NCBI GenBank assembly: GCA_041611735.1
Contig: JBFIML010000013.1
Span: forward strand, 12,188 to 76,187
From: Myxococcota bacterium
GTDB taxonomy: Bacteria; Myxococcota_A; UBA9160; PR03
Direction of reading: 5' to 3'
Length of the DNA: 64,000 nt
The translations under genes and the position numbers were made by a program. Position 1 is the stretch's first letter. The number at the start of each line of letters is the position of its first letter. Positions 858 through 64,000 of the stretch are shown here, one piece after another. The notes under the pieces are model-generated. The model was not told the DNA's origin. It made no database searches and saw nothing but the letters and a program-made list of their open reading frames with translations.

Positions 858-905
858 GGTCAGATCTCCCCATCCCCTCCGGTGATCGATTCGCTCTCGC
901 CGCGC

Positions 906-2380: not shown

Positions 2381-2427
2381 GCCTCACCTCCCCCGGACGG
2401 CCGTCGTGCGCCGTCCTGGCTCCCTCG

Positions 2428-2443: not shown

Positions 2444-2451
2444 TGCTGTCC

Positions 2452-2479
2452 CGATCGGCAACCCAGCCGGGATCATTGA
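2452..2479 (-). promoter_or_regulatory. sigma28 (FliA)-type promoter motif upstream of pilW2
   Basis: Minus strand TCAAT-N15-GCCGATCG. Confidence 0.6.
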
Positions 2480-2570
2480 GCTTTTCCTGCCGGCGCCGGG
2501 CCGGGCCGGGGGCCCGGCTGCGCAGCGCCTTGCGCGCCGCGCAACCTGCTGCGTAGACCCGGTTCGAGGC

Positions 2571-3572: not shown

Positions 3573-3591
3573 GGTCCCTCCCGTGCGCCGC

Positions 3592-3915: not shown

Positions 3916-3928
3916 GACTCGCCTCCTT

Positions 3929-7459: not shown

Positions 7460-7511
7460 GGCAGGAACCTCCGGATTCGGAGTCGGGGAGCCATCGCCGG
7501 GGCCACGACGG

Positions 7512-9031: not shown

Positions 9032-9036
9032 GGCGG

Positions 9037-10196: not shown

Positions 10197-10233
10197 CGGA
10201 ACCTCCCCGGGCGCCTCGCCCGCCGGCCTGGAC

Positions 10234-10249
10234 AGCAAGCCGTGTGCCA
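10234..10249 (-). promoter_or_regulatory. sigma54 promoter of the fimU-pilVWX-pilY1 operon
   Basis: Minus strand TGGCAC-ACGGC-TTGCT, a consensus -24/-12 element 38 nt upstream of fimU. Confidence 0.85.
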
Positions 10250-10257
10250 GTGATCCG

Positions 10258-10285
10258 TTTTCGGCCAAGTCCCCGTTTCGCTTGA
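10258..10285 (-). promoter_or_regulatory. sigma28-type promoter motif upstream of fimU
   Basis: Minus strand TCAAG-N15-GCCGAAAA. Confidence 0.6.
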
Positions 10286-10357
10286 GGATTCGATGGATGC
10301 GCCGACTCCGTCGCTGCGCAGTGCGCTGCGGGGTCCGCAGGCGGCTGCGGGGCTCCC

Positions 10358-11845: not shown

Positions 11846-11853
11846 GCTCGCGT

Positions 11854-14954
<3,101 letters not shown>

Positions 14955-14968
14955 GCCGGCCTCGGGGC

Positions 14969-16180: not shown

Positions 16181-16229
16181 GCCTCACTCCCTCATCGGTT
16201 GGCAGAAGGGCTCGCGCCTCCTCCGCTCC

Positions 16230-17333: not shown

Positions 17334-17346
17334 GCTTGCTCCGCTC

Positions 17347-19047
<1,701 letters not shown>

Positions 19048-21202: not shown

Positions 21203-22282
21203 ATGACGATCCTGCAGCGCTACCTGCTGCGGCGCTTCCTGATCCACTTCGCCGTGGTTTTCGTGCTCTTGATCCTCGCCGTCAGCGTCGTGGACACGCT
21301 CCTGGAGCTGGACGATCTGATGGGCGAGGCGGGCGGGGTGCGCGAGGCGCTCTGGTCCATGGCCCTCCGCGTGCCGGCCCTGCATCTCATGATCCTCATC
21401 CCGGCCACCGCCTTCGCCGCGGCCTTCGTGTCGCTGGGCATGGCGGCTCGCCGCGCCGAGATCATCGCCATGAAGGCAGGCGGGATCTCGCCCCTGCGCG
21501 TGGTCCTGCCCCTCCTGCTCGCGGCCGGCGTCGTCTCCGGGCTGGCCGGAATCCTGAACGAGACCCTGGTGGTGAGCTCGGTCCAGACCCGCCGCCAGCT
21601 CGACGGAAGCGACCGGGGCCAGCTGACCTTCCGGCGCGGCTCCTTCTGGTACCACCGCGGCCGCTTCGTCTACAACGTACAGGACGCGGACCCCGAGGCT
21701 CGCACGCTGCGGGGGGTCGCGGTCTTCGAGCTGGATCCCCGCGGAAGGCTGGTGCGCAGCATCCACGCGGCCCGCGCCGAGATCGCCGAATCGGGCGACT
21801 GGCGACTCCTGGACGCGAGCGTACGACGCTTCGACCCCGAGCAACCGGCGCAGCCCGTGCGCTTCGAGCGTCTGCCCGAAACCCAGCTCGCGCTGTCCGA
21901 AGAGCCCACGCTGACCCTCCTGCAGGCGGACGTGGAAGACCTCTCGCTTCGCGACCTGCGCGACTTCCTGGAGTCGGGCTCCGCGGAGGGCCTCAGCCTG
22001 GTGCGCGCCCGCGCACTCCTGCACGAGCGCCTGACGGATCCGCTCAGCGCCTTCTTGTTCGCGCTGCTGGCCGTCCCGCTCGGGCTCCGCGTGGAGCAGA
22101 CTCGCAGCCTGGCGCGACCCGCCCTCCAAGGCGTCGTCCTCCTGTTCCTCTTCTACCTGGCGCGGCAGTCCGGGGCCGAGTTCGCGCGCCAGGGCCTCGC
22201 CTCCCCGGTCGCCACGCCCTGGCTCATCTTCGCCGCCTTCGCGGCCCTCGGCCTGTGGCGGCTGCTCCGCGTCCCGCGCTAG
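21203..22282 (+). CDS. LptF/LptG-family permease
   Basis: ILQRYL N-terminus, EIIAMKAGGIS, 3 TM + periplasmic domain + 3 TM. Confidence 0.88.
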   Translation: MTILQRYLLRRFLIHFAVVFVLLILAVSVVDTLLELDDLMGEAGGVREALWSMALRVPALHLMILIPATAFAAAFVSLGMAARRAEIIAMKAGGISPLRVVLPLLLAAGVVSGLAGILNETLVVSSVQTRRQLDGSDRGQLTFRRGSFWYHRGRFVYNVQDADPEARTLRGVAVFELDPRGRLVRSIHAARAEIAESGDWRLLDASVRRFDPEQPAQPVRFERLPETQLALSEEPTLTLLQADVEDLSLRDLRDFLESGSAEGLSLVRARALLHERLTDPLSAFLFALLAVPLGLRVEQTRSLARPALQGVVLLFLFYLARQSGAEFARQGLASPVATPWLIFAAFAALGLWRLLRVPR

Positions 22283-23169
22283 GGCCGGCCCCCCCCCGGC
22301 GCGCTGAACAGCCGGAAGAAGTCGCTGCTCGACGGCAGGACGAGGGTAGTCTGCTTCCCGATGCTCTTGCGATACGCCTCCAGGCGCCGCACGAAGCCGT
22401 AGAACTCGGGAGCCTGACCGTGCGCGGCCGCGTAGATGCGGGCGGCCTCGGCGTCCCCCTCGCCGCGCAGCGTTTCCGCCTCGCGACGGGCTTCCGCCAC
22501 CAGCACCCGAGCCCCGCGGTCCGCCTCGGCCCGGATGCGCCGCCCCTCCTCGTCGCCCTCGGCGCGGTACTTGCGGGCCAGGCGCTGGCGATCGGCTCGC
22601 ATGCGCGCATAGACGTTCTGCTCCGTCCCGGTCGGCAGCTCGGTGCGGTTGATGCGCACGTCGCGAACCTCGACCCCGAAAGCCACCATCTCCTGGTTGC
22701 TCTCGCTGGTGATGGCTTGCATGATCTCCAGCCGCGCGCCGGTCACGACCTCCGAGAGCGTTCGCTGGCCGATCAGGTTGCGGACGTCCGCCCGCACCAC
22801 GCGGTCGATCTGGAGCTCCGCCTGGTCCCGCCCGCCCGGGAAGGCGGCGTGGAAGACCAGCGGGTCCTCGATGCGCCAGACCACGTAGTTGTCCACCACG
22901 AGCCGCTCCTCGTCCCGGGTCTGGATGGGAAGCGGCTCCGTGTTCAGGTAGAGCAGCCGGCCGTCGAAGGTGCGCACGTCGGTCACCAGCGGCCAGCGCA
23001 GCGAGAAGCCCGGCTCGGTGCGCACCGCGGTGGGCTTTCCGAACAGCAGCACGAGCTTCTGCTCGCCCTCTCGGGTGATGACGACCGGACCGACCCCGGC
23101 CTCGCCCCCCCAGACCAGCACCCCAGCCGCCACCCCGAGCACCAGCAGGGCCAGCACGAGACGCCTCAT
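22279..23169 (-). CDS. hflC: FtsH protease modulator HflC
   Basis: VVDNYVVWRIEDP, VYARMRADR, RAEG, APEFYGFVR. Confidence 0.92.
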   Translation of the reverse strand: MRRLVLALLVLGVAAGVLVWGGEAGVGPVVITREGEQKLVLLFGKPTAVRTEPGFSLRWPLVTDVRTFDGRLLYLNTEPLPIQTRDEERLVVDNYVVWRIEDPLVFHAAFPGGRDQAELQIDRVVRADVRNLIGQRTLSEVVTGARLEIMQAITSESNQEMVAFGVEVRDVRINRTELPTGTEQNVYARMRADRQRLARKYRAEGDEEGRRIRAEADRGARVLVAEARREAETLRGEGDAEAARIYAAAHGQAPEFYGFVRRLEAYRKSIGKQTTLVLPSSSDFFRLFSAPGGGRP

Positions 23170-24155
23170 CGCTCGCCCCCCTTCGACTCGCCACCCAGCA
23201 GGGGAAAGTGGGGCAGCACGCCGCTGCCGGGCTCGATCACCACCAGCCGCACCGAGGGCAGCACCTGCTCCATGGTCTCCAGGTAGAGCCGCGTTCGCAC
23301 CACGTCCGGCGCGCGTTGGTACTCCCCAGCCAGGGCCTGGAAGCGGTTCGCCTCTCCCTGGGCTTCGGCCACCAGGGCCTCCCGGTAGCCGCGCGCCGAC
23401 TCGCTGAGCTCGATGGCCTCGGCCCGCGCCTTCGGCAGCACCTCGTTGGCGTAGCCCTGGGCCTCGTTCATGGCGCGGCTGCGGTCCTGGATGGCGGCGA
23501 TCACGTCGTCGAAGGCGTCGCGCACCTCCCGGGGCGGCTGCACGTCCTGGAGCTGCACGGCCAGGACCACGAGACCCGACTCGTAGCGATCCAGCACGTC
23601 CTGGAGCACCGTCTCAGCTTCCGCCTCCACCTCTCCCCGCTTCTCCGAGAGCACGCCGTCGATGGTGGTGCGCCCGACCACCTCGCGCACCGCAGCCTGG
23701 GCTGCGTCGCGCAGGGTGAGCTGGGGCGAGGCCACCCGATAGCGGGAGGCGAAGGCGTCCTTGATGCGGTACTGCACCACGAAGCTCAAGTGCACGATGG
23801 CGTTGTCGCTGGTCTGCATGGCCGCTTCGAGCAGCTCCGGAGCGCTGGGATCCGGACCCGCTCCCGCGCGATAGCCGAACTCCTCACGCTCGATGGCCGC
23901 CACGGTGACCACGTCGTGCCGCTCCACGGGCGGCGGCAGGTGCCACTTGAGGCCGGGATCGACCTCGGTGCGGACGTACTGGCCCAGGCGCAGGATGACC
24001 GCCGCCTGTCCGGGCTGGAGCTGGTAGACGCCGAGCCAGCCCCAGGCACCCAGGACCCCGAGCACGAGCAGCAGCAGGCCCAGGCTTGCCGCCGTCTGGG
24101 CGGCGCCACCGCGCTGGGACGGCGCATCCCCCTCGGCTCGAGCGCGTCGAGCCAT
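23166..24155 (-). CDS. hflK: FtsH protease modulator HflK
   Basis: GLKWHLPPP, AFDDVIAA, RLYLETM. Confidence 0.92.
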   Translation of the reverse strand: MARRARAEGDAPSQRGGAAQTAASLGLLLLVLGVLGAWGWLGVYQLQPGQAAVILRLGQYVRTEVDPGLKWHLPPPVERHDVVTVAAIEREEFGYRAGAGPDPSAPELLEAAMQTSDNAIVHLSFVVQYRIKDAFASRYRVASPQLTLRDAAQAAVREVVGRTTIDGVLSEKRGEVEAEAETVLQDVLDRYESGLVVLAVQLQDVQPPREVRDAFDDVIAAIQDRSRAMNEAQGYANEVLPKARAEAIELSESARGYREALVAEAQGEANRFQALAGEYQRAPDVVRTRLYLETMEQVLPSVRLVVIEPGSGVLPHFPLLGGESKGGER

Positions 24156-24938
24156 CTAGAGTCCCGACCGGGTCGGGGTCGACTCTTCCGCAGCCTTGCC
24201 GCGCTCGTAGAACGGCCGCAGCACGTCGAGCGGCAGGGGAAAGATCACCGTGCTCGCGTTCTCCGTGGAGATCTCCGCCAGCGTCTGCAGGTAGCGCAGC
24301 TGGAGCGCCGAGGGCTCCGAGGCCAGGATCTTCGCAGCCTCCGCGAGACGCTGCGACGCCTCGAACTCGCCCTCCGCATGGATGATCTTGGAGCGCTTCT
24401 CGCGCTCCGCCTCGGCCTGGCGCGCCATGGCCCGTTGCATGTCGGGCGGAAGGTCGATCTGCTTCACCTCCACGGCCCGCACCTTGACGCCCCAGGGCTC
24501 GGTCTGCAGATCGATGATCTCCTGCAACTTGCGGTTCACGGCCTCGCGTTCGGCCAGCAGCTCGTCGAGCTCCGCCTGGCCGCACACGCTGCGCAGAGTG
24601 GTCTGGGCGAGCTGCGAGGTTCCGTACAGGTAGTTCTCCACCTGGATCACCGCCTTCTCCGGGTGGAGGACGCGGAAGTAGAGCACCGCGTTCACCTTGA
24701 CCGAGACGTTGTCCCGGGTGATGACCTCCTGGGAGGGGACGTCCATCACGATCTCGCGCAGGCTGATCTTGACCAGCCGATCCACCACCGGAATGATCCA
24801 GCGGAAGCCCGCCTCCTTGACCCCGTTGTAGCGCCCCAGCCGGAAGACCACGCCGCGCTCGTATTCCTGCAGGATCCGGATGCCGGCCAGCACGAGCGCG
24901 ATGAGCAAGCCGACGAAGATGAACGGAATCGGCAGCAT
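24156..24938 (-). CDS. SPFH/stomatin-like (slipin) protein
   Basis: [40 protein letters not shown]. Confidence 0.93.
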
Positions 24939-24957
24939 CTCTCTCTCCCTCCTGCGG

Positions 24958-26289
24958 TCAGCGCTCCGGCGGAGCCCGCCGCACGCGCAGGCGCAGCCCT
25001 TCCACGCCCGTCACCTCGACCCGCTCGCCCGGCGGGATCGACTCGTCCGCCCGGGCCGTCCAGTACTCGCCCCGCACGAAGACTCTTCCCTCCGGCGAAA
25101 CCGCGGTGGTGGCGCGGCCCACCAGGCCCAACAGCTCGCCGACGCCGGCGGTCTGTCGGCGCCCCAGGCTGCGCCCCACGGCGAACACCACCAGGGCCGC
25201 GAACAGGCCGAGCGCCGCCACCGCCGGCACCAGCACGGTCCAGAACGAGACCGTCAGGTCGCTCACCTCGGGTAGCCGAAAGAGCATGGAGCCGCCCACC
25301 AGGACCAGCCCGATGCCCAGGGCGAACAGCAATCCGTAGGACGTGACGAACACCTCGGCCGCCAGCAGCGCGATCCCCGCCAGCAGCAGCAGAAGGCCCA
25401 GCCAGGAGAACGGCAGCAGTTGCAGGGCGATCATCGCGAGGATCAGGCAGGCGGCGCCGACCAGGCCGGGCACGATCAGCCCGGGCTGGTTGAACTCGAT
25501 GTAGAGGCCGAGCAGCCCGGCCATGATCAGCAGCACCGCCACGTCCGGGCTCGCCAGCACGTGCAGCAGGCGCGTGAGCGCCGGCATCTCGATGCGGTGC
25601 TCCACGGCGCCGGCCAGGGACAGGGTGCGCTCCTCGCCGGCCACCCGCACGCTGCGTCCCTCCAGCTTCTCGAGCAGCTCGGCCCGGTTCTCCGCCACCA
25701 GGTCGATCACGTTCAGACGCAGGGCCTCGTCCGGAGCGATCGCAACCGATTCGCGCACCGCCTTGACGGCCCACTCGACGTTGCGCTTGCGCTCCTTGGC
25801 GATCGATTCGATGAAGGCCGCCAGCAGGTTCTCGGCCTTCTCGGCCGCGAAATCGCGCGACTTCTCGTCCTCTTCGCCGCCCGGCGCTCCCCCTCCGATC
25901 CCGACCGGATGCGCCGCCCCGATGCTGGTGCCTGGCGCCATGGCCGCCACGTGGCCCGCCAGGGTGATGAAGGTCCCCGCCGAGCCGGCCCAGGCGCCGC
26001 GCGGCGCCACGTACACCACCACCGGCACCCGCGCGTTCAGGATCGCCTGAATGATGTCCTTGGTGGAGGCGACGAGCCCCCCCGGCGTATCGAGCTCGAC
26101 GATCAGGGCGGCCGCGGCCTCGGTCTCGCTCTGGACGATGGCCTTCTGCAGGAAGTCCGAGGAGGCGGGATTGATGGTCCCGGAAATGACCACCACGTTC
26201 AGGCGGGCGGCCACTGCGGCGGAGGGCAGCGCCGCCAGCGCCGCCGCCAGCACGCCCGCGGCCAGCGCCAGCCACCGCGGTCCGCTCAT
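24958..26289 (-). CDS. nfeD: Long-form NfeD (ClpP-class membrane serine protease + OB domain)
   Basis: LDTPGG, AGSAG, IGAAHPV, C-terminal [14 protein letters not shown] overlap with coaBC. Confidence 0.92.
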
Positions 26290-37250: not shown

Positions 37251-37256
37251 GCCGTC

Positions 37257-37428
37257 GGTCTGCCCGGTGCGTCAGGGGAGCCGATCGCTCAACCCGGTGA
37301 GACGTGATCGGGATCCGTTCCTGGCCGTCGACCGAGCGCCCGCCTGGCGGGACGAAGGGACGCGGCGACACGGAGCCCACCTGGTTCGACCAGGGATTGA
37401 GTTCGCTTCCCAACGGCCATGGCGGACC
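37257..37428 (+). ncRNA. ssrS: Probable 6S RNA (172-nt rod with central bubble)
   Basis: Hand-folded nested pairing GGTCTGCC/GGCGGACC, GGGGAGC/GCTTCCC, GCTCAA/TTGAGT, CCC/GGG, then a bubble, then GGG-TCCGT/ACGGA-CCC and an apical CCCGC/GCGGG; begins at the predicted transcription start. Confidence 0.6.
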
Positions 37429-37469
37429 GTCCTCCGGGCGCATGGGAGACGGGAGAGGGGCCCGAGCCG

Positions 37470-41750: not shown

Positions 41751-42065
41751 CTAGAGCCGGCCCTCCAGGTAGCCCTCGATCAGCTCGATGAGGCCGGTGT
41801 CCACTCCGTCGAAGCACAGACCCACCAGGCCGCGCTGCGGATCGCTCCACGCGACCACCGCCTCCAGGGCCAGCGGCAGGGAGATGCCGGGCAGGGCGAA
41901 CTCGCTGGTGACCGGCGTCCGCGTCGGGGGCAGCGGCGAAGTCATGCTCACGCTCATGCCCCCGGCGGAGAGGTCGCGGCCCGAGGCCAGCTTCCTGCGC
42001 CCTCGAGTGGTGATCTCCACCCAGCCTTCGAACGAGGCTCGGGATCGCCCTCGGCGCTCCTGCAT
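41751..42065 (-). CDS. Stand-alone PilZ domain protein
   Basis: ERRGRSR (RxxxR) and DLSAGG (DxSxxG) c-di-GMP-binding motifs; SD GGAGG. Confidence 0.88.
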   Translation of the reverse strand: MQERRGRSRASFEGWVEITTRGRRKLASGRDLSAGGMSVSMTSPLPPTRTPVTSEFALPGISLPLALEAVVAWSDPQRGLVGLCFDGVDTGLIELIEGYLEGRL

Positions 42066-50473: not shown

Positions 50474-51973
50474 ATGCCCAGAACGCTGCTCCTCGCTGAC
50501 GACAGCGTGACGATCCAGAAGGTCGTCGGAATCAGCTTCGCCAACGAAGACGTGGTCCTGCTCACCGTCGACAACGGCGACGATGCGATCCGCCGCGCAC
50601 GGGAGACCCGTCCGGACGTGGTCCTGGCCGACGTGGTGATGCCCGGCAAGAGCGGCTATGAGGTCTGCGAGGCGATCAAGCGGGACCCGCAGCTCGCTCA
50701 CGTGCCGGTGCTATTGCTGACGGGCACCTTCGAGCCCTTCGACGAGGAGCGGGCGAGCCGGGCCGGGGCCGACGGGCACATCACCAAGCCCTTCGAGGCC
50801 CAGGCGCTGGTGGATCAGGTGAACGCCCTGTTCGCGAAGAGCGCCGCGGCGGCCTCGGCGCCCGCCGGGCGCCCGCAGCCCGTGGGGCCCCCCGGCGCAT
50901 CCCAGGCCTACGATTTCTTCGAGGACGACCTGTCGCCGTCCATGCCGACCGCCGGCGAGGCCGCTGCGCCTCCCCCCCTACCGCCGGAGGCCGCGCTGGA
51001 GCTCGACGAGGACCCGGAGCCCCTGGAGCTCGAGGCTGCGGTGGAGGACGACCTGGCAGGCGGACCGATCTCCGAAGCCCGCTCGGTGCCCCCCCCGCCC
51101 CCCCCGGCCGCGGACTGGCAGCCCGGTCCCGGCGAGACGGACTTCACCACCTGGGGGATGGAGCCGCCTCTCGAGGCCGCGCCTGGCTCCCGGGAGCGCG
51201 TGCCCGCGCCGCCGCCGACTCCGGTCGAGACGCCGCGGAGCGGGCCGGAGTCGAACTCCTGGGGTGACGTGACCGGCGGAGGACCGTTCAGCCTCGATTT
51301 CATGCAGCCCGAGCAGACCTCGGATCGCGGCGCCGAAGATCCCCTGGCCCAGCTCGGGTCCGAGGAGCTCGGAGCGGAGGCGGTGCTGGACCCGGAGGCG
51401 GCCCGCGCCCACGAAGTCTCCTCTTCCGACCTGGGCGCCACCCCGTCGGATTACGACACGCCCACCGCCCGGCCCTACGGCGTCCGGACCCCCGCGCGGC
51501 CCCCCGCCCCGGCTCCTGCCCAGCCCGCCGAAGGCCGGCCGACGCCAGAGCCTTCCTTCGCCGACGTGCCCCTCGCGGAACCGGCACCCTTCGGTCCGCC
51601 GGCCTCGCGCCGCGCGGACGAGGCAGCGATCCCGGAGTCGGAGACGGCCATGACGGAGCTCGAGCCCGTCGCGGAGCTCGAGGAGACCGGGCATGGGGCG
51701 CTCGCGCCGGAGCCCTCCATCGTGGCGGATCCCGAGCGCGCAGCTCCGGTCCACGCGCCCGGCGCGCCGACGCCCCCCGGCGAGCTTCGCCAGCGGATGC
51801 ACGAGAGCATCGAGAAGGTGGCTTGGGAGGCCTTCGGAGACCTGTCGGAGCGCATCGTGCGCGAGGTCGTGGAGCGGGTCGAGGCGGTGGCGTGGGAGGT
51901 CATCCCGCAGGTGGCGGAATCGCTGATCCGCGAGGAGATCCAGCGCCTGCAGAACGAGGACTCGGGCGCCTAG
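50474..51973 (+). CDS. romR: RomR-like polarity response regulator
   Basis: LLLADDSVTIQKVV REC, Pro/acidic linker, C-terminal VAWEVIPQVAESLIREEIQRL; adjacent to valS. Confidence 0.88.
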   Translation: MPRTLLLADDSVTIQKVVGISFANEDVVLLTVDNGDDAIRRARETRPDVVLADVVMPGKSGYEVCEAIKRDPQLAHVPVLLLTGTFEPFDEERASRAGADGHITKPFEAQALVDQVNALFAKSAAAASAPAGRPQPVGPPGASQAYDFFEDDLSPSMPTAGEAAAPPPLPPEAALELDEDPEPLELEAAVEDDLAGGPISEARSVPPPPPPAADWQPGPGETDFTTWGMEPPLEAAPGSRERVPAPPPTPVETPRSGPESNSWGDVTGGGPFSLDFMQPEQTSDRGAEDPLAQLGSEELGAEAVLDPEAARAHEVSSSDLGATPSDYDTPTARPYGVRTPARPPAPAPAQPAEGRPTPEPSFADVPLAEPAPFGPPASRRADEAAIPESETAMTELEPVAELEETGHGALAPEPSIVADPERAAPVHAPGAPTPPGELRQRMHESIEKVAWEAFGDLSERIVREVVERVEAVAWEVIPQVAESLIREEIQRLQNEDSGA

Positions 51974-54705: not shown

Positions 54706-55571
54706 GGCCCCGCCCGCCCCTGCCCCCGCCTTCCGCCTGGCGGCCCCTGGTCGAGCTCGCCCTGGCCGAGGACCTGGGACCCGGCGACGTCACGACCCCC
54801 CTGGTGGTGCCGGCCGCCGCTCGGGGCCAGGCCCGCATCGAGGCCCGCCAGCCCCTGGTGACCTGCGGCCTCCCGGTGGCGTGGGCGGTGTTCGAGGCCG
54901 TGGATCCGCACCTGGCCGTGCAGGCCCAGGTCGAGGAGGGAGAACAGGTCTCGGACGGCGCCGTGCTCCTGCGCGTAACGGGCTGCGTGCGCTCGATCCT
55001 GGCCGCCGAGCGCACCGCGCTCAACTTCCTGGCGCGGCTGTGCGGTGTGGCGACCTTCACGCACCGCTTCGTGGAGGCGGTGGCCGGCAGCGGTACCCGC
55101 GTCGTCGACACCCGCAAGACGCTGCCCGGCTGGCGGGTCCTCGACAAGTACGCAACCGCCGTGGGGGGCGCCGGGAACCATCGCATGGGCCTCTACGACG
55201 GCCTACTGCTCAAGGACAACCACCTGGCCACCGCGGGGGGCGTGGCGGCTGCGGTGAAGGCGGCGCGAGCGGGGGCGCCGACCCACCTGCGCCTGCAGGT
55301 GGAGGTGGAGTCGGAGCCGGAAGCCGAGGCGGCCGTCGCGGCCGGCGCCGACGCCCTGTTGCTCGACAATCGCTCGCCCGCAGAGCTGCAGCGCTTCGTA
55401 GAGCGCTTCGGAGAGCGCGTGCTGCTCGAGGCGAGCGGCGGCGTCACCCTGGAGCGGGTGCGGGAGATCGCGGCCACCGGCGTGCACCGCGTCTCGATCG
55501 GAGCCCTGACCCATTCGGCGCCCGCCGCGGACGTGGCGCTGGAGCTGGAAGGATTCCCGACGGGCACCTGA
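54702..55571 (+). CDS. nadC: Quinolinate phosphoribosyltransferase
   Basis: EDLGPGDVTT, DTRKTLPG, LKDNH, EASGG; TTGA overlap with valS. Confidence 0.96.
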
Positions 55572-56572
55572 GCCGGGGCGCGGCGCACGTCCTCGCGGCG
55601 CTGCGGCGCGAACGCGAGCGATCGCTCTCGGGAGCCGCGTTGTCGTCGGCCCTCGGCGTGAGCCGCGCCCAGGTCTGGAAACACGTGCGCGCCCTGCGCG
55701 CACGCGGCTACCGGATCGACGGCACGCCGGGCGGCGGCTACCGGCTCGCGGCCATCCCGGATCGCTTGTACCCCGAGGAGGTCGAAGCCCGGCTCGCCAC
55801 CTCCTGGCTGGCGCGTTCCCTGCACTGGTACGAATCCGTGGATTCCACCAACCGGGTCGCCCTGGAGCTGGCTCGCCGCGACGCGGCCGCCGGCACCACG
55901 GTGGTGGCCGAGGGTCAGACGGCCGGCCGCGGCCGCCTCGGGCGCGCCTTCTTCTCGCCTGCCGGGGTGAACCTCTACACGTCGGTGGTGCTGCGGCCCG
56001 AGCTGTCCACCGCCGAGGCGCCGACCCTGATCCTGACCGCCGCGGTCGCCGTGGCCGAGGCGGTCGCGGCGGAGCTGGACGATCCCGAGGCGGTCGAGAT
56101 CAAGTGGCCAAACGACGTTCTGCTCGGCGGGCTCAAGACTGCCGGGATCCTGATGGAGCTCGGCGCCGAGGCCACCCGCGTGGCGTTCCTGGTGCTTGGG
56201 ATCGGGGTGAACCTGAACGTGGCACGCAGCGCGCTCCCGCCCGCGTTCCGCGCCTCCGCCACCAGCGTCGCGAGCCACAGCGGGCGCCTGCTGGACCGGG
56301 TGGCCTTCGCCTGCCGTCTTTACGGTACCCTCGAAGAGGTGCTCGAACGCCACGCCGAAGGAGGATTCGCGGCGGTGCGTCCCCGCTTCGAGGCGCGCTT
56401 CCGCATGGCGGGACGCCCGGTCTCCGTGAGCGAGCCGGGCGGGGGGCGCTTCGACGCCGTGGCACTCGGGATCGATTCCGACGGAGCGCTCCGGGTCCGA
56501 CCCCGCGGCGGCGCGCCCCGGCGCGTGCTGGCTGCAGACGTGACCCTCTCCCGCCAGGAGGTACCCGGGTGA
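55568..56572 (+). CDS. birA: Bifunctional biotin repressor / biotin-protein ligase
   Basis: HTH (GVSRAQVWKHV), DSTN, QTAGRGRLGR, KWPND; CTG start overlapping the nadC stop. Confidence 0.94.
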   Translation: MSRGAAHVLAALRRERERSLSGAALSSALGVSRAQVWKHVRALRARGYRIDGTPGGGYRLAAIPDRLYPEEVEARLATSWLARSLHWYESVDSTNRVALELARRDAAAGTTVVAEGQTAGRGRLGRAFFSPAGVNLYTSVVLRPELSTAEAPTLILTAAVAVAEAVAAELDDPEAVEIKWPNDVLLGGLKTAGILMELGAEATRVAFLVLGIGVNLNVARSALPPAFRASATSVASHSGRLLDRVAFACRLYGTLEEVLERHAEGGFAAVRPRFEARFRMAGRPVSVSEPGGGRFDAVALGIDSDGALRVRPRGGAPRRVLAADVTLSRQEVPG

Positions 56573-57384
56573 GCGACACGGTCCTGCTGGCCGTGGACAT
56601 CGGCAACACCAACGTCTCGCTGGGCATCTTCGAGTACCAGGGCGAGGCGGTCCAACTGAGCCACCACTGGCGGCTCGGCACCCATCGCGAGCAGACCTCC
56701 GACGAGCTCGCCATCACCGTACGCGCGCTCTTCGAACCCAACGGCCCGGCGGTGCAGCGTATCAGCCACGTGATCATCTCGAGCGTCGTGCCTCCCCTGC
56801 TGCCGATCTGGGAGCGGGTGTGCAGCAAGCTGTTCGACCGCGCGCCCCTCGTGGTCGGGCCCGGCATCCGCACCGGCATGCCCGTGCGCTACGAGAACCC
56901 CCATGAGGTCGGCGCCGACCGCATCGTGAACAGCGTGGCCGCCCTGGCGCTGGTGGGAGCCCCGCTCATCGCGGTGGACTTCGGGACCGCCACCACCTTC
57001 GACTGCGTCTCGGCGGCCGGTGAATACCTGGGCGGCGCCATCTTTCCGGGCATCCACATCGCCATGGAGGCGCTGTTCTCGCGGGCGGCCATGCTGCACC
57101 GGGTGGAGCTCACGCGCCCCAAGGCCGTGATCGGCCGCACGACGACGCAGGCGCTGCAGTCGGGTCTCCTGTATGGCTACGCCTCCATGGTGGACGGCAT
57201 GGTCGAGCGCCTGCGCACGGAGCTCGGCGCCGAGGCCCGCGTGGTGGCCACCGGCGGCCTGGCCCAGCGCGTCGCCGCCGAGAGCCGGACGATCGAGCGT
57301 GTGGAACCCTTCCTCACCCTGGAGGGGCTGCGGCTGCTCTTCGAGAAGAACGAACGCGGCCCGCTGCCGCGCAAGGAGAGGTAG
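56569..57384 (+). CDS. coaX: Type III pantothenate kinase
   Basis: VDIGNTN, GADR, DFGTATT, ATGG. Confidence 0.96.
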   Translation: MSDTVLLAVDIGNTNVSLGIFEYQGEAVQLSHHWRLGTHREQTSDELAITVRALFEPNGPAVQRISHVIISSVVPPLLPIWERVCSKLFDRAPLVVGPGIRTGMPVRYENPHEVGADRIVNSVAALALVGAPLIAVDFGTATTFDCVSAAGEYLGGAIFPGIHIAMEALFSRAAMLHRVELTRPKAVIGRTTTQALQSGLLYGYASMVDGMVERLRTELGAEARVVATGGLAQRVAAESRTIERVEPFLTLEGLRLLFEKNERGPLPRKER

Positions 57385-57386
57385 GC

Positions 57387-59456
57387 ATGCAGAACGTCGA
57401 CGTGCGCGACACCCGGAACTTCGCCCTGATCGGTCACGCCGGGGACGGCAAGACGTCGCTCGGCGAGGCGCTGTTGTTCCGGGCCCAGGCCACGTCGAGT
57501 CTGGGGCGCGTGGACGAGGGCAGCTCGGTGCTGAACCACCTGCCCGAGGAGGCGGGTCGCACCACGAGTCTGGCACCCAAGGTGTATGCCTTCGACTGGT
57601 CCGGACGGCACCTGACGCTCGTGGACACGCCGGGCGACCCGAATTTCCTGCCCCAGGGGCAGATCGTCCTGCACGCCCTGGATGCGGCGGTGCTCGTGGT
57701 CTCCGCGGTGGACAGGGCGAAGGTCGGCACGGAGCGCATGTGGCGGACGGCGCGCGAGCTGCGCCTTCCGCTGCTCGCCTTCGCCAACGGGCTGGACCGG
57801 GACCGCGCGGACTTCGCGGCCGCGCTGGAGTCGCTGGCCAAGATGGGGGCGAAGCCGGTGGCGCTCGTGCATCCGCTCGGCGCCGGGGCCACGCTGCGGG
57901 GCGTGGTGGATCTGGTGACTCGTCGCTTCCACGGCCCCGAGGGAGCGGGGGAGGTGCCGGGCGACGCCGCGGAGGAGGTGGAGGCGGCCCGTCGGGCGCT
58001 TCAGGAGGCGGTGGCCGAGTGCGACGACGGCCTGCTCGAGAAGTATCTGGAGGAAGGCGCGCTCTCCGACGAGGAGGTCGCCGCGGGCCTGCTGCGCGCA
58101 GTGCGCGAGGGCGAGCTGCTCCCGGTCCTGGGGGGCGTCGCTACCCAGGGCCTGGGAGCGGAGCTGCTGCTGCGGGCGGTGTCGGACCTGCTGCCCTCGC
58201 CCGCCGATCGTGCGCCCTGGTCGGCCACGGATCTCGCCTCCGGGGCCGAGACGCAGGTGACCGCGGACCCGGCGGGCCCCTTCGCCGCGCGGGTGTTCAA
58301 GACCTCCATCGATCGCTATGCCGGGACCCTGTCCGTGTTCCGGGTGGCCTCGGGCACCGTGCGAGCGGACCAGGGGGTCCTCGACGCCAGCACGGGAGCC
58401 AGGCAGCGACTCGGAAAGCTCTTCGTGCTGCGCGGGGGGGAGCACGTGGAGGTGCCGGAGGCCGGCCCCGGCGACGTGGTCGCCGTGGCCAAGCTGAAGG
58501 ACGTGCACACCGGCAACGCCCTCACGGCGGAGAAGGGAGGGGTGCGCCTGCCGGACATCCCGATTCCGCAGGGCGTGCTCTCGTACGCGATCCGGGCCAA
58601 GGCCAAGGGCGACGAGGACAAGGTCTTCACGGCCCTGGGCCGCCTGGTGGAGGAGGATCCGACCCTGCATCTGCAGCGCGACGAGCAGACAGGGGAGTTC
58701 CTGCTCACGGGCATGGGAGAGCTGCACATCCGGACCTCGGTCGAGCGCCTGCGGGGACGCGCCAACCTGGAGGTGGAGCTCACGACGCCGAAGGTCCCCT
58801 ACCGGGAGACCATCACGCGCCGCGTGGAGCACGTGGAGGGAAAGCTCAAGAAGCAGACGGGCGGCCGGGGCATGTTCGGGGTCTGCTACGTGACGGTGGA
58901 GCCGCTTCCCCGCGGGGGAGGCTTCGAGTTCCTGGACGAGATCGTCGGCGGGGCGATCCCCCGCAACCTGATCCCGGCGGTGGAGAAGGGGGTCGTGGAG
59001 GCCGCCCAGCAGGGCCCCCTGGCGGGCTACCCGGTGGTGGACTTCCGGGTGCGCTGCATCGATGGAAAGTTCCACTCGGTGGACTCCAACGAGATGGCCT
59101 TCAAGCTGGCGGGCAGCATGGGCTTCAAGGCAGCCATGGAGCAGGCCCGACCCACCCTGCTCGAGCCCGTCATGGACGTGGAGGTCGTCACCCCGGACGA
59201 GAACGTGGGAGACGTGATGGGGGACATCTCGAGCCGCCGGGGCCGGGTCCAGACGACCGAGGCCCGGGGCTCGGGGCAGGTCATCAAGGCGCAGGTCCCG
59301 ATGGCCGAAATGCTCGAGTATGCGAGCGTCCTGACCAGCCTGACCGGAGGCAAGGGCGTTTTTCACATGGAGTTCTCGCACTACGACGAGGTCCCGGCGC
59401 AGGTTCGCGAGCGGGTCGTCGCCGGAGCGAGGGGCTCCGAGAAGGCGGGGTCCTAG
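57387..59456 (+). CDS. Elongation factor G-like protein (divergent EF-G2)
   Basis: GHAGDGKT, DTPG, EEDPT, GMGELH, YRETI, HSVDS; G2 and G4 motifs divergent. Confidence 0.9.
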   Translation: MQNVDVRDTRNFALIGHAGDGKTSLGEALLFRAQATSSLGRVDEGSSVLNHLPEEAGRTTSLAPKVYAFDWSGRHLTLVDTPGDPNFLPQGQIVLHALDAAVLVVSAVDRAKVGTERMWRTARELRLPLLAFANGLDRDRADFAAALESLAKMGAKPVALVHPLGAGATLRGVVDLVTRRFHGPEGAGEVPGDAAEEVEAARRALQEAVAECDDGLLEKYLEEGALSDEEVAAGLLRAVREGELLPVLGGVATQGLGAELLLRAVSDLLPSPADRAPWSATDLASGAETQVTADPAGPFAARVFKTSIDRYAGTLSVFRVASGTVRADQGVLDASTGARQRLGKLFVLRGGEHVEVPEAGPGDVVAVAKLKDVHTGNALTAEKGGVRLPDIPIPQGVLSYAIRAKAKGDEDKVFTALGRLVEEDPTLHLQRDEQTGEFLLTGMGELHIRTSVERLRGRANLEVELTTPKVPYRETITRRVEHVEGKLKKQTGGRGMFGVCYVTVEPLPRGGGFEFLDEIVGGAIPRNLIPAVEKGVVEAAQQGPLAGYPVVDFRVRCIDGKFHSVDSNEMAFKLAGSMGFKAAMEQARPTLLEPVMDVEVVTPDENVGDVMGDISSRRGRVQTTEARGSGQVIKAQVPMAEMLEYASVLTSLTGGKGVFHMEFSHYDEVPAQVRERVVAGARGSEKAGS

Positions 59457-59533
59457 CCCGCGCGGCTCTGCCCCGCGGGTGCGACGGCCGGGACGCGGGG
59501 CCTGCTGGGGGCCGAGAGGGGAGCAGCCGCGCG

Positions 59534-60619
59534 GTGTCCGAACGAGCCAAGATCCGCATCACGCTCTCGCCCGAGGCCGAGCGCTACGCGCGGCGCGACG
59601 CCCCGCTGCAGGTGCGGCAGCTGGCCTCGCGGGGCGTCCTGCCCCTGCCCCCGATCGAACTCGCCACGGTCCTGTTCGTGCTCACCCGCGACCCGGACGC
59701 GGAGATCAAGGACCGGGCCCGCCAGAGCCTCGAGAACCTGCCCGAGGGCGTACGCAACGAGGTTCTCTCGGGACCGGCCCATCCCGCCCTGCTCTCCTGG
59801 CTGGGCCACGCCTGGAAGGACCATGCGGATCGCATGGAGCGCCTGGCCCTGAACCCAGCCGCCGACGACGCCACCTCCACCTTCCTGGCCACGCTGCCCC
59901 ACAAGCGGGTCGTCGACATCGTGGCCAACAACCAGCAGCGTCTGCTGCGTTGCCCGGACATCGTGGAGGCCCTCGGCGCGAATCCCCTCACCGGGCGCGC
60001 CGCCATCGACCGCATCCTGTCCTTCCTGGGCCTCGACAGGCCCATGGCGGAGGTGCACGAGGAGCCGGAGGAGGACTTCCCGCCCCCGCCCGAGGAGCTC
60101 ACGGATGCCGAGGCCCAGGCCGCCCTGCGCGCCGTGCTGGGCGACGACGTCTCGGGCTTCGCCCGCGAGCTGGTGGACGACGGTGCGGAGCTCAGCGACG
60201 AGCTGCGCGCCAACCTCCATGCGGCCATCCAGGAAATGTCCGTCTTCCAGAAGATCAAGCTCGCGCGCATGGGCAACAAGGAGGCGCGCGGCATCCTGGT
60301 GCGCGACCGCAACAAGATCGTAGCGACGGCGGCGATCCGCAGCCCGAAGATCACCGAGCTCGAGGTGATCGCCCTGGCCAAGTCACGCAACGTGAGCGAC
60401 GAGGTCCTGCGCCTGGTGGCCGCCAACCGCGACTGGACCCGCAACTACCAGGTGAAGCTCGGATTGGCCACCAACCCGAGGTGCCCCCAGCCCACCGCCA
60501 TGAAGTTCCTGAACTACCTGCAGGACCGCGAGTTGAGAAGCATCATGCGCAGCAAGGACGTGCCGTCGGCGGTGTCCGCGCACGCCCGGCGCATCCTGAC
60601 CAAGAAGGGGAAGCTCTGA
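59534..60619 (+). CDS. Hypothetical helical-repeat protein
   Basis: Repeated LAxNP/xxNP motifs, KIKLARMGNKEARGILVRD; GTG start; TGATG overlap with the next gene. Confidence 0.8.
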   Translation: MSERAKIRITLSPEAERYARRDAPLQVRQLASRGVLPLPPIELATVLFVLTRDPDAEIKDRARQSLENLPEGVRNEVLSGPAHPALLSWLGHAWKDHADRMERLALNPAADDATSTFLATLPHKRVVDIVANNQQRLLRCPDIVEALGANPLTGRAAIDRILSFLGLDRPMAEVHEEPEEDFPPPPEELTDAEAQAALRAVLGDDVSGFARELVDDGAELSDELRANLHAAIQEMSVFQKIKLARMGNKEARGILVRDRNKIVATAAIRSPKITELEVIALAKSRNVSDEVLRLVAANRDWTRNYQVKLGLATNPRCPQPTAMKFLNYLQDRELRSIMRSKDVPSAVSAHARRILTKKGKL

Positions 60620-61578
60620 TGGCGGAGATTCATCCGGATCAGCACGAGGTAGACGCCCGCATCCTCTACTGGGGCATCGAGGGCTCCGGCAAGACCTCGA
60701 ACCTGCAGGCCATCCACGGTCGGCTCCGGCGCGACCACCGGGGCGAGATGCAGCATGTGCCGACGCCGCTCGATCCCACCGTGACCTACGAAGTGCTGCC
60801 GATCAAGCTGGGCGAGATCGGCGGCGTTCGCACCCGGATCCAGGCCATCGCGGTGCCGGGGTCCCCGGAGCACGCACCCACCCGCAAGGCGCTGCTGGAC
60901 CGCACCGCCGGGGTCGTCTTCGTGATCGATGCCCGGCGCGAACAGATCGATGCCAATCTCGCCAGCTTCGACGAGCTGCGCGGCGCCCTCGCCGCCTACG
61001 GTCGTGCCCTGGAAGGGGTTCCGCTCGTGCTCCAGTACAACAAGCGCGACGTTTCCGACCCCTATGCGCTCGAGGAGCTGCACCGGAAGCTCGACCTGCA
61101 CGGGGTCACCGCGTTCGAGGCGGTGGCGCGCGAGGGAACGGGGGTGATCCAGACCCTGACCACGATCTCGAAGCGGGTGATCCGGGCCCTGCGCGAGACG
61201 GAGGCGATGCAACCCACCTCGCCGACGCCGGAGCCGACGGAGCACGAGCGGCCCCAGGCGGAGGCGCCGGAGCCCGCCGCCGATTCGGCGCAGGCGCGGC
61301 TCGAAGCCGAGCCCGACCACATCGGGGAAGCGGCGCAAGCCCCGCGGCTTCCCGAAGCGATGCGCGAGCCCGCCCGGGAGTGGGACCCCGAGCCCTCCAG
61401 CCAGGAGGCGCCCGTCCTCGCCGGGCACGGCTGGCGGCTGCTCGATGCGGGCCAGGCGCGGGTCGTGGATGCGCGGACCCTGGAGATCCCGCTGGTCCTG
61501 GCCGACGCCGAGGGTCACGAGACCCGCCTGCACCTGCGCCTCGCCCTGGATCCGGACCTGGAGGAGGCGGAGGGATGA
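60619..61578 (+). CDS. MglA-family small GTPase paralog with a C-terminal extension
   Basis: ILYWGIEGSGKTSNL, LPIKLGEIGG, VPG, GVVFVID, LQYNKRD; about 120-aa acidic/Pro tail. Confidence 0.85.
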   Translation: MAEIHPDQHEVDARILYWGIEGSGKTSNLQAIHGRLRRDHRGEMQHVPTPLDPTVTYEVLPIKLGEIGGVRTRIQAIAVPGSPEHAPTRKALLDRTAGVVFVIDARREQIDANLASFDELRGALAAYGRALEGVPLVLQYNKRDVSDPYALEELHRKLDLHGVTAFEAVAREGTGVIQTLTTISKRVIRALRETEAMQPTSPTPEPTEHERPQAEAPEPAADSAQARLEAEPDHIGEAAQAPRLPEAMREPAREWDPEPSSQEAPVLAGHGWRLLDAGQARVVDARTLEIPLVLADAEGHETRLHLRLALDPDLEEAEG

Positions 61579-63863
61579 GACGGCGCATCGCCCTCTATGG
61601 AGGCAGCGACGAGGCCCTGCAGCTCGTCCCCCTGCTCCAGGCCAACCCCGCGGTGGAGATCGTCGCCGTCTACGATCCCAACGCCGAGGCCCTGCGCCAC
61701 CGGGTCGCCAGCCTCGACCTGGAGAGCGTCGCCACCCTGGAGCGTGCCCTCACCGACGATCCGGAGACCCTGCGCCGCGACCCGGACCTCTACGCCGTGG
61801 TGGACGCCGGGTTGCAGCCTTCCTTCGCCAGCCGCTTCCCCGACCTCTTGCGGCGCGGCGTACAGGTGGTCGCCCCCCTGACGGCCCGGCTGCTGTGGGG
61901 TTACGGCGTCTCGGCCCGCGACCGCAAGGCGGAGCTCCTGCAGGCCCTCCACGAGGTGGTGGAGTCCGTGGAGCTCACCGTGGACGCCGACGAGCTCTTC
62001 TCCCGCATGCTGGAGATCGCCATCGGCGTGACGGGCGCGGACCGCGGCTCGCTCATGCTGCTCGACCCCGAGAGCGAGGAGCTGACCGTCCGCGTGGCCA
62101 TCGGCATCGAGTCGGAGCTCTGGCCGAAGATCCGGGTCCGCGTGGGTGAGGGAATCGTGGGACGCGTAGCGGCGGACGGACGCCCGCTGCGCCTGCGCGG
62201 AAAGGCGGATCGCGAGGCCTTCCAGATCGTTCGCGAACGGCTCGACGTGGAGTCGGCACTCTGCGTGCCGCTGCTCCACGAACAGCGCCTGCTCGGCGTG
62301 TTGAACCTGCACCACACCACGCGGCCGGACGTCTTCTCGGACGACGACCTGGCCTTCGCCGAACAGCTCGGTCGTCTCGACGCCCAGATCATCGCGCGGG
62401 CCCAGGAGCACGAGTTGCTGCGGGGCCAGGCCGCCCGCTACGAAGCGGTGCGCGAGGTACGCAACATCCTGGCCGGTCGCACGCCGCTGCACGATCGCAT
62501 CGGGGGTCTATGCGACTGGCTCGCCGGGCGAGTGGGGTCGGGGGTGGTCTCCGTGTACCTGTTCGACCCCGAGGCGGAGGAGCTGCGCCTGGCGGCCACC
62601 TCTCTGGAGGGCGGCGGCCTGGGCGGGGAGTACCGGGTCCGGCTGGGACAGGGTCTCGACGGGCGCGCCGCCCGCCAGCGACGTCCGCTCTTCCTGCGCG
62701 AGCCGGATGGACGCGTGGCCTACGCGGCGCTGCCCCTGCTGGCGGACGATACGCTGGTCGGCCTGCTGGCCGTCCAATCCGGCGAGCGGGCCCCGCGCGG
62801 CCCCGCCGCCGAAGAGGGCCTGCTCGAGATCGCGGCGGCCACCGCAGACGGGATCGCTCAGGCGGAACGCGAGTCTCGCATTACGACCCACGCCACCAAG
62901 GAGGGGGCCCTCAACGAAGCCGGAATCCGCATGATCTCGAGCCACGACGTAGGCGACGTGGCGCGTCTCGCTACGTCATCCGCCGGCATGGTGCTGGAAG
63001 CCGATCATGCCGTGCTGCGTCTCCAGGACGAGGCCACGCGCCGGTACGTGGTACGCTCGTACTTTGGCTCCGCCGACGGCCGTCTGCAGGAGCGCCTGTT
63101 CCGACTCGACAAGCAGGTTTCCGTCGACGTGATCAAGCGACGCGGCCCCATGCTGGTGCGCGACGCCCGCCAGGACTCCCGCTGGGCCGACGACAACCTG
63201 CACATCCGCTCCTTCATGGCGGCCCCCCTGCTGAACAAGGACCGCATCATCGGCATCCTGGCCGTGTACGAGAAGGTCACCAGTGACCGCTTCGCCGCCA
63301 CCACCTTCGTCGACGACGACTTCCGGATGTTCGTGCGCTTCGCATCCTATGTGGAGCGGGCCGTGGAGAACTCCCGCTTCCGCTCCCAGGCCTCCCGTCA
63401 CCGCAGCTTCGACGAAGAGACCGGGCTTCCCACCACCGCCTATCTCGGCCGCCGGATCGACGAGGAGATCGCCCGGGCCGCGGAGCGCCTCCACGGTCTG
63501 GCCCTGGTCACCTGCCGCCTGGAGAACCTGGAAGAGATCCGCCGGGCGGCCGATCCCATCCGCGCGGAGCGCGTCGTGTTCCGGATCGCGGATGCCCTGC
63601 GCACCCAGCTCCGGGACTTCGATGTGCTGGCGCGCACCGGCGAAGGGGAGTTCACGGTCCTGATGCCGGAGCCGGGAGCGGCGCCCGAGGAGGCCGTGGC
63701 GAAGCTGGCGCGAGCCGTGGCGGACGATATCGCCAAGGACGACGCGCTGAACGAGCCCGTGCGGGTGGGGCTTGCGTTCGGGTACGCGGTGCACCCGGAT
63801 GACGGGGTGGACCGGGACGGGATGCTGGCGCGCGCCTCCTCTCCCCGCATCCGCATGCTCTAG
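61575..63863 (+). CDS. Multi-GAF protein with a degenerate GGDEF domain
   Basis: Rossmann-like N-terminus, three GAF-like segments (GEGIVGRVA; GQGLDGRAA; SFMAAPL), C-terminal DEETGL...RDFD-VLART-GEGEF; ATGA overlap. Confidence 0.85.
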   Translation: MRRRIALYGGSDEALQLVPLLQANPAVEIVAVYDPNAEALRHRVASLDLESVATLERALTDDPETLRRDPDLYAVVDAGLQPSFASRFPDLLRRGVQVVAPLTARLLWGYGVSARDRKAELLQALHEVVESVELTVDADELFSRMLEIAIGVTGADRGSLMLLDPESEELTVRVAIGIESELWPKIRVRVGEGIVGRVAADGRPLRLRGKADREAFQIVRERLDVESALCVPLLHEQRLLGVLNLHHTTRPDVFSDDDLAFAEQLGRLDAQIIARAQEHELLRGQAARYEAVREVRNILAGRTPLHDRIGGLCDWLAGRVGSGVVSVYLFDPEAEELRLAATSLEGGGLGGEYRVRLGQGLDGRAARQRRPLFLREPDGRVAYAALPLLADDTLVGLLAVQSGERAPRGPAAEEGLLEIAAATADGIAQAERESRITTHATKEGALNEAGIRMISSHDVGDVARLATSSAGMVLEADHAVLRLQDEATRRYVVRSYFGSADGRLQERLFRLDKQVSVDVIKRRGPMLVRDARQDSRWADDNLHIRSFMAAPLLNKDRIIGILAVYEKVTSDRFAATTFVDDDFRMFVRFASYVERAVENSRFRSQASRHRSFDEETGLPTTAYLGRRIDEEIARAAERLHGLALVTCRLENLEEIRRAADPIRAERVVFRIADALRTQLRDFDVLARTGEGEFTVLMPEPGAAPEEAVAKLARAVADDIAKDDALNEPVRVGLAFGYAVHPDDGVDRDGMLARASSPRIRML

Positions 63864-63928
63864 CTTGTGGTTCGAAGATTGCGCCTGGGGGGGGCCGGCC
63901 GGGGCCCGATCCGGGGGGATGGCTCGGG

Positions 63929-64000
63929 CTAGCGGGCGTAGACGGCCCGGTGGATGGGGCCGCGGGGCAGGCAGCGGGTGGGGATGCGGCGCTCGTAGCA
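63929..64000 (-). CDS. Possible 3' end of a gene entering from the right
   Basis: Open frame ...CYERRIPTRCLPRGPIHRAVYAR* with GC-rich third positions; too short to identify. Confidence 0.3.
   Translation of the reverse strand, partial: CYERRIPTRCLPRGPIHRAVYAR

Follow-up and report, generated by a model that had tools for sequence, protein, structure and literature searches.

MglA serves as the paradigm of a Ras-like switch by which bacteria set cell polarity, and Arg53 and Gln82 are residues of its active site (PMC6785124). The criteria for Group 1 of the family, to which the MglA proteins of Myxococcus xanthus and Thermus thermophilus belong, include a coupled MglB (Roadblock/LC7), a GTPase-activating protein (GAP), encoded within four genes (Wuichet and Sogaard-Andersen 2014). 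The Arg is said to be conserved in all Group 1 members; in Groups 2-5, Thr replaces this intrinsic Arg and the Gln is kept within GTPGQ (PMC4316618). In Bdellovibrio, an orphan MglA without MglB, whose natural Ser21 has been interpreted as GTP-locking, binds the 353-amino acid (aa) TPR protein Bd2492, and both Bd2492 and RomR bind CdgA, a degenerate GGDEF receptor, at the invasive pole (PMC3983030). Here we describe a row of three genes, labelled G1, G2 and G3 in + strand order, that occupies the last 4.3 kb of a 64,000-nucleotide (nt) stretch of a Myxococcota bacterium genome (contig JBFIML010000013.1, positions 12,188 to 76,187; this whole stretch is "the window" below). G1 encodes a predicted helical repeat protein, G2 a relative of MglA in which the residues of MglA-type catalysis are replaced, and G3 a GAF-GGDEF protein that is a putative receptor for cyclic di-GMP (c-di-GMP). 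By analogy, the Bdellovibrio pole hub appears to be the closest functional counterpart of this trio.

The genes and their junctions are arranged as follows:

59534-60619, + strand: G1, 361 aa, GTG start
60617-60621, + strand: TGATG junction of G1 and G2; the G1 TGA (60617-60619) and the G2 ATG have one base (A) in common
60619-61578, + strand: G2, 319 aa
61575-61578, + strand: ATGA junction of G2 and G3; the G2 TGA (61576-61578) lies within ATGA, and the G3 ATG is 61575-61577
61575-63863, + strand: G3, 762 aa

The two stop/start overlaps, which a preliminary description of this DNA had named, were thus borne out, and purine runs resembling Shine-Dalgarno sequences can be read ahead of the G2 and G3 starts. 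All three frames have a G+C content at third codon positions (GC3) of 0.90-0.94, matching the genuine genes of this window, whose overall G+C is 70-75%. Upstream, 77 nt separate G1 from a gene for a paralogue of elongation factor G (EF-G); directly 3' of G3 a convergent gene terminates, so G3 closes the row and there is no space beside the trio for an extra gene. A Pfam scan of 50 open reading frames (ORFs) in the window returned no Roadblock/LC7 (MglB) match, in agreement with the earlier statement that no mglB is adjacent, and neither the window nor the 80 related loci described next showed a canonical mglA or mglB. A coupled MglB, as specified for Group 1, is therefore absent at the trio, although MglB-less orphans are known in the family.

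Scanning genomes with a profile of G1 brought up 148 relatives; the 80 loci that were kept all come from metagenome-assembled genomes (MAGs) labelled Myxococcota, Deltaproteobacteria or similar. G2 directly follows G1 in 80/80 of these loci, and G3 follows G2 in 69 of the 73 that could be assessed (seven loci end too early). With start codons picked by a simple rule, G1 and G2 overlap by 1 or 4 nt at 64 of 74 related junctions, every one of the 74 gaps being 18 nt or less, and G2 and G3 overlap by 1 or 4 nt at 36 of 54. The trio persists in five loci without the EF-G gene (L071, L076, L077, L079 and L080), while in the four loci without G3 (L005, L009, L023 and L028) G2 is adjoined either by genes that normally lie downstream of the trio (alanine dehydrogenase, ATP sulfurylase) or by unrelated ones. 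These overlapping junctions, together with the persistence of G1-G2 despite changed neighbours, make a stronger argument for linkage than adjacency does. The trio had been expected to be conserved as a coupled unit; the coupling held, but the conserved core is G1-G2.

The closest relative of G2, by both sequence and fold, is MglA. Residues 4-193 align without a gap to residues 4-193 of M. xanthus MglA (5ymx; expect value, E, 5.5e-36; approximately 36% identity), so that MglA residue numbering is valid for G2, and the second-best sequence family, Arl3, scores only E 9.5e-4. Likewise, the top Foldseek match of the predicted G2 structure is MglA bound to GTPgammaS (6h17; E 3e-18; template modelling (TM) score 0.88 on the target; 36% identity), with Arf/Arl structures trailing it by nine orders of magnitude. 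The parts of G2 are the following (pLDDT, predicted local distance difference test):

60619-61209, + strand: G-domain, residues 1-197, MglA-like, predicted with pLDDT >90
60673-60696, + strand: P-loop GIEGSGKT, with E21 at the position of MglA G21 (Ras G12)
60772-60780, + strand: switch I, D52-P53-T54 (DPT), with P53 in place of the MglA arginine finger R53
60853-60864, + strand: switch II, V79-P80-G81-S82 (VPGS, within AVPGS), with S82 in place of the catalytic Q82
61039-61050, + strand: G4 motif NKRD, N141-D144, placed by the MglA alignment
61210-61431, + strand: linker rich in Pro and Glu, of varying length among relatives, predicted to be disordered
61432-61545, + strand: beta mini-domain of four strands, residues 272-309, pLDDT about 92, its pattern kept in relatives (tail alignment)

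The gapless alignment confirms the motif changes that had been read from the bare sequence, namely the kept GKT and NKRD, DPT for DRT and VPGS for VPGQ, and the tail, estimated earlier at about 120 aa, measures some 124 aa. Both MglA-family binding motifs, the P-loop GxxxxGK[ST] and the G4 motif [NT]KxD, are present in the window G2, whereas both the Group 1 arginine finger (R53) and TVPGQ with Gln82 are absent; the combination matches neither Group 1 nor Groups 2-5. Compared with M. xanthus and T. thermophilus MglA, G2 shares a switch II of the VPG form, T54, NKRD and a G-domain without gaps, but it differs in R53, Q82 and G21, in having no MglB, and in its 124-aa tail with the beta mini-domain. 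Orphan paralogues that lack MglB as G2 does include SofG (MXAN_6703), the extension of which is N-terminal, and Bdellovibrio MglA (Bd3734). The latter also resembles G2 in carrying a residue other than Gly at position 21, a substitution that lowers hydrolysis in MglA and Ras (PMC3983030). With all of its binding motifs intact, the window G2 may well be able to bind GTP but not to hydrolyse it.

Group 1 orphans, likewise without MglB, that come close to G2 in length (335-433 aa) have been tabulated, and in cultivated deltaproteobacteria these long orphans include MXAN_2693 (372 aa), COCOR_05345 (378 aa), Adeh_1152 (356 aa), sce2413 (433 aa) and LILAB_21165; the genes of some, MXAN_2693 among them, adjoin PATAN genes (PMC4316618 Table S2). 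G2 lacks the Arg that is stated there to be universal in Group 1, which argues that the long orphans are not relatives of G2 or else escaped examination for this residue. No PATAN gene was present among 16 ORFs scanned downstream in five of our loci, which include genes for alanine dehydrogenase, ATP sulfurylase, glycosyltransferases and a JAB protein. A literature search found no paper text mentioning MXAN_2692, MXAN_2693 or MXAN_2694.

We compared the window protein with two sets of relatives, (i) 120 close metagenomic sequences and (ii) 70 sequences that comprise the window and the genome loci, left from 73 rows once 3 miscalled ORFs had been removed. The counts, metagenomic first and locus second, are:

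R53: 0/120; 0/70
Q82: 0/120; 1/70
G21: 0/120; 0/70
P53: 120/120; 69/70
T/S54: 120/120; 66/70
G81: 120/120; 57/70
N141: 120/120; 70/70
D144: 119/120; 70/70
Canonical Walker A, GK[ST]: 63/120; 35/70

The description of G2 as a catalytically degenerate relative of MglA thus extends to the family. The Walker A motif, by contrast, is decaying: Lys25 is replaced by T, V or A in 25/120 relatives and by T, V or I in 12/80 loci, and residue 26, the Mg ligand, is frequently A, E, L or R. Given these losses, the conserved function cannot everywhere depend on Mg-GTP binding. The earlier term "GTP-locked" may hold for the window copy, in which all binding motifs are kept, but a uniformly GTP-locked state of the family is doubtful; judged by its residues, the common property is the loss of MglA-type catalysis and not one nucleotide state. 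In addition, Lys25 is lost in all four loci without G3 versus 7/69 of those with it, which hints that loss of G3 is linked to loss of nucleotide binding, though three of these loci have a P-loop of AGVST type in common and the four probably represent a single evolutionary event.

G1 has no family match in Pfam or NCBIfam, TPR included. Its AlphaFold2 model, built with 38 relatives, is all-alpha (pLDDT 84; predicted TM score, pTM, 0.75), with lobes at residues 13-164 and 191-358 connected by an acidic linker of low confidence. Searched against the PDB with Foldseek, the model gave only weak ARM/HEAT matches (E 4e-3 or weaker, TM about 0.2), namely designed armadillo proteins, importin-alpha and the PP2A A subunit. 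We predict an ARM/HEAT-like alpha-solenoid, for which the earlier term "helical scaffold" is apt. The protein ends in a basic conserved peptide, ARR(I/L)LxKKGK(I/L), which in the window copy reads ARRILTKKGKL (60553-60616). Close matches number >1,500 at 65-84% identity, all labelled hypothetical, and clustering at 50% identity yielded 3,636 family clusters with E up to 1e-3, 556 of them with E up to 1e-30. The nearest clusters in the Atlas are from Acidobacteriota and Myxococcota, and a profile of distant members has hits, annotated as hypothetical proteins, in Hyalangium versicolor, Archangium violaceum and Anaeromyxobacter MAGs. G1 is slow-evolving, near the pace of EF-G: the mean distances are 0.50 (G1), 0.46 (EF-G) and 0.51 (NadC). 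Eighteen longer relatives carry no Pfam domain, and no Rosetta-stone fusion was found among them.

In G3 the following parts can be distinguished:

61575-61949, + strand: conserved N-terminal domain, residues 1-125, with Rossmann-like matches below threshold only
61950-63374, + strand: sensory region of three GAF domains (Pfam GAF, E 3e-37, three stretches)
63408-63836, + strand: degenerate GGDEF domain, residues 612-754 (PF00990, E 7.3e-13), aligned to solved cyclases
63612-63623, + strand: RDFD, the RxxD motif of the I-site, residues 680-683, five residues before the A-site
63639-63653, + strand: GEGEF, degenerate A-site, residues 689-693, aligning to GGDEF of solved cyclases
63843-63860, + strand: C-terminal peptide PRIRML, PRIRM[VL] in relatives (R758 58/61, I759 57/61, R760 55/61)

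The three GAF domains and the spacing of RDFD to GEGEF agree with the preliminary description, and RDFD coincides with the RxxD of solved cyclases in the alignment. Among 61 full-length sequences the I-site is kept (R680 60/61, D683 57/61; also R687 59/61), the four exceptions at D683 being Arg-rich strings that are apparently out-of-frame reads, whereas the A-site is free to vary, its first residue being G in 28, A in 16 and D in 7 of the 61. Moreover, the solved-cyclase block LDVDNFKSINDSLGH (DxDxFKxxND/GH) aligns to CRLENLEEIRRAADP in G3, a replacement by which metal- and substrate-binding residues are lost besides the A-site. Judged by these residues, G3 cannot have normal cyclase activity, and its earlier assignment as a degenerate cyclase with a kept RxxD stands. 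R713, found in 57/61 relatives, lies 33 residues past R680 and could by sequence spacing correspond to the secondary I-site arginine (PleD R390, SgmT R794), the spacing in SgmT being 31 (PMC3509222). For the N-terminal domain, the best Pfam match, NAD_binding_3 (E 0.011), fell below the cut-off, and an Atlas search yielded no usable match. A PDB profile search with this domain returned designed armadillo proteins, which we rejected as spurious hits made through a short AVIDAG-like motif.

GGDEF proteins whose A-site is degenerate and whose I-site is intact are known as c-di-GMP receptors: PopA, SgmT and CdgA share with G3 an intact RxxD five residues upstream of a degenerate A-site, binding controls localisation in PopA and SgmT, and SgmT also combines GAF with GGDEF (PMC3509222). 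As a putative receptor, G3 differs from these three in having three GAFs and an extra N-terminal domain, in having no kinase or receiver, and in being encoded in an operon with a G-protein. PelD is a further protein in which a GAF domain accompanies a GGDEF-like fold. The MglA-family G-protein and the I-site receptor are each of a known kind; the combination is new.

The gene structure, motifs, family conservation and predicted folds described above are consistent with a model in which G1, G2 and G3 form one operon and encode a cytoplasmic signalling assembly with a non-cycling, MglA-derived G2 and a second-messenger input through G3, a model that we consider a serious possibility, if a little short of probable. 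G2 would be a descendant of MglA in which the MglA switch has been retired: as the arginine finger and the catalytic Gln are lost and position 21 is acidic (E21), we infer that G2 does not hydrolyse GTP in the MglA way. Such a pseudo-GTPase could be permanently "on" or could serve as a nucleotide-independent binding module. The G1 solenoid would be its obligate partner, in physical association with it. G3 would then act as an accessory, non-catalytic regulator that associates with the other two, binds c-di-GMP at the conserved RxxD and senses further ligands through its three GAF domains, so that a second-messenger input would have taken over regulation from a GTP/GDP cycle. Candidate ligands of the solenoid would be the G3 C-terminal peptide and the G2 beta mini-domain, and the short conserved basic peptides that end G1 and G3 may be docking or membrane-binding motifs. 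A G-domain with decayed motifs that serves as a scaffold, with a solenoid as its likely partner, would resemble the pseudo-GTPases of eukaryotes, an analogy that implies no homology. Eukaryotic small GTPases pair with ARM/HEAT partners, as in Ran with importin-beta and Arl2 with its partners.

A broader proposal, which we advance tentatively and regard as rather doubtful, is that the G1-G2 core represents an unrecognised bacterial adaptor system of pseudo-GTPase and alpha-solenoid, in which the MglA nucleotide switch is retired and control is exerted through c-di-GMP and GAF ligands of G3. If this is true, (i) G2 would be the first family-wide Ras-superfamily pseudo-GTPase described in prokaryotes, (ii) bacteria, like eukaryotes, would reuse dead GTPases as scaffolds, and (iii) there would be a route by which c-di-GMP substitutes for a GTPase cycle. 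Our literature search on MglA pseudo-GTPases and on MglA-like, homologous or paralogous proteins found no paper on the G2 family, a family that is catalytically decayed yet under selection and is tied to a very conserved solenoid protein. The G1 family is large and unnamed, its >3,600 clusters (50% identity) coming from Acidobacteriota and from Myxococcota, the cultivated Archangium and Hyalangium among them, and its presence in cultivable myxobacteria makes it experimentally approachable.

Several observations weigh against the signalling assembly as we propose it. T/S54, G81, N141 and D144 are near-invariant in G2 relatives, so nucleotide-dependent switching could persist, and the window's own G2 carries the full set of nucleotide-binding motifs. 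G3 is missing in 4/73 loci and is therefore not essential to the role of G1-G2. The neighbourhood from a sigma factor gene to coaX is as syntenic as the trio, with some ten housekeeping and regulatory genes on the flanks kept in order to the same degree, which makes conserved adjacency alone weak evidence. Finally, in a mirror-tree (distance-matrix) comparison of 41 loci plus the window, with EF-G, CoaX and NadC as controls, the trio showed no excess correlation over the controls (G1-G2 0.53, G1-G3 0.45 and G2-G3 0.16, versus 0.66 for G1-EF-G and 0.67 for G1-NadC). Complex prediction for G1 with full-length G2 gave interaction prediction scores from aligned errors (ipSAE) of 0.00 and 0.00, which, as the run had no controls, weigh neither way.

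A first alternative is a polar hub as in Bdellovibrio, where a GTP-locked G2 would couple c-di-GMP and GAF signals to the polarity of type IV pili together with a RomR-like protein. The likeness is one of protein kind: each side has an MglA that is putatively non-cycling, a helical repeat protein approximately 355 aa long and a GGDEF receptor of the degenerate kind; in addition, G2 carries E21 and is without MglB. The window, moreover, carries a pilus cluster, a PilZ gene and, on the same strand as the trio, a gene that could encode the RomR-like component:

50474-51973, + strand: RomR-like protein, 7.5 kb upstream of the trio, with a receiver domain (PF00072) at residues 6-116

Past the receiver domain, this protein continues into a linker rich in Pro and, towards the C-terminus, a conserved helical region. 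The preliminary description had placed romR about 8 kb upstream; position and strand agree, but the product is RomR-like by architecture only. Between this gene and the trio stand valS, nadC, birA, coaX and the EF-G gene, and the pilus genes are some 40 kb away; as these intervening and pilus genes match the trio itself in synteny, the proximity of romR-like and pilus genes is unspecific. Further, the Bdellovibrio hub genes are scattered, with Bd2492 in the tamAB operon, whereas the trio forms one operon, and G1 has no TPR match, its fold matches being to ARM/HEAT proteins. That roughly half of the G2 family has no canonical Walker A is at odds with a uniform GTP-locked state, and neither the window nor the 80 loci revealed a canonical mglA or mglB. 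We therefore think this version of the trio's role unlikely, while cell polarity or motility remains, by analogy, one candidate for the output of the proposed assembly.

It seems similarly improbable that G2 is still a working GTPase, by means of other catalytic residues or of a GAP acting in trans, possibly G1 or G3. Such activity would fit the retention of GKT, T54, G81 and NKRD in the window protein and of T/S54 (120/120), G81 (120/120), N141 (120/120) and D144 (119/120) in its metagenomic relatives. Rap is a working GTPase that has no catalytic Gln. The Arg-less Groups 2-5 of MglA include a proven GTPase, CvnD9, but these groups retain the Gln in GTPGQ (PMC4316618), which is missing from 120/120 and 69/70 of the G2 relatives. 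A non-Gly residue at position 21, which lowers hydrolysis in both MglA and Ras (PMC3983030), and the disappearance of Lys25 or of the Mg-binding Ser/Thr26 from about half of the family likewise argue against such activity.

That the three genes are mere neighbours in a lineage of very stable gene order, with products that do not cooperate, strikes us as distinctly unlikely, even though at least ten flanking genes are likewise conserved in order and the mirror-tree correlations within the trio do not exceed those of the housekeeping controls. Stable gene order would leave unexplained the kept stop/start overlaps (64/74 and 36/54), set against the 77-nt gap before G1, and the adjacency of G1 and G2 even where the EF-G gene (5 loci) or G3 (4 loci) is lacking. 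We find it hardly credible that the trio works in translation with the EF-G paralogue, in a coaX-EF-G-G1-G2-G3 transcription unit, since the trio occurs without the EF-G gene in five loci and Pfam and NCBIfam place a ribosome-related domain in none of the three proteins, for all that the gene ahead of G1 is, in most loci, that of the EF-G paralogue, which starts 2 nt past the coaX stop and is separated from G1 by no terminator-like site that we could find on the + strand.

The order of genes 5' of the trio is valS, nadC, birA, coaX and the EF-G paralogue, with nadC-birA-coaX-EF-G forming the row immediately before G1; two of these genes deserve coordinates:

55568-56569, + strand: birA, biotin ligase with a helix-turn-helix domain, occupying what seems a gap between nadC and coaX
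57387-59456, + strand: EF-G paralogue (NF009381, 804 bits), starting 2 nt past the coaX stop

Farther 5', beyond valS, lie the genes for the RomR-like receiver protein, a PP2C phosphatase, a sigma factor and NtrC-type regulators. A consensus scan of 56000-64000 found neither a sigma-70-like promoter nor a + strand terminator, and an Rfam scan found zero families near the trio. The sole Rfam match of the window, far from the trio, is a 6S/SsrS RNA (RF00013, 53 bits, above the gathering score) at 37254-37432 on the + strand.

Elsewhere in the window, the type IV pilus cluster spans 900-19047 on the - strand and encodes a PilX-like protein and other minor pilins, PilY1 (3932-7966), a second histidine kinase (10361-11845), PilR (11857-13239), PilS (13239-14954), PilC (14972-16180), PilT (16233-17333) and PilB (17350-19047). 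A stand-alone small PilZ-domain protein, another candidate c-di-GMP receptor, is encoded at 41754-42065 on the - strand. On the same strand, 22282-26289 holds three SPFH/Band 7 genes in series, followed by an NfeD membrane protease-like gene.

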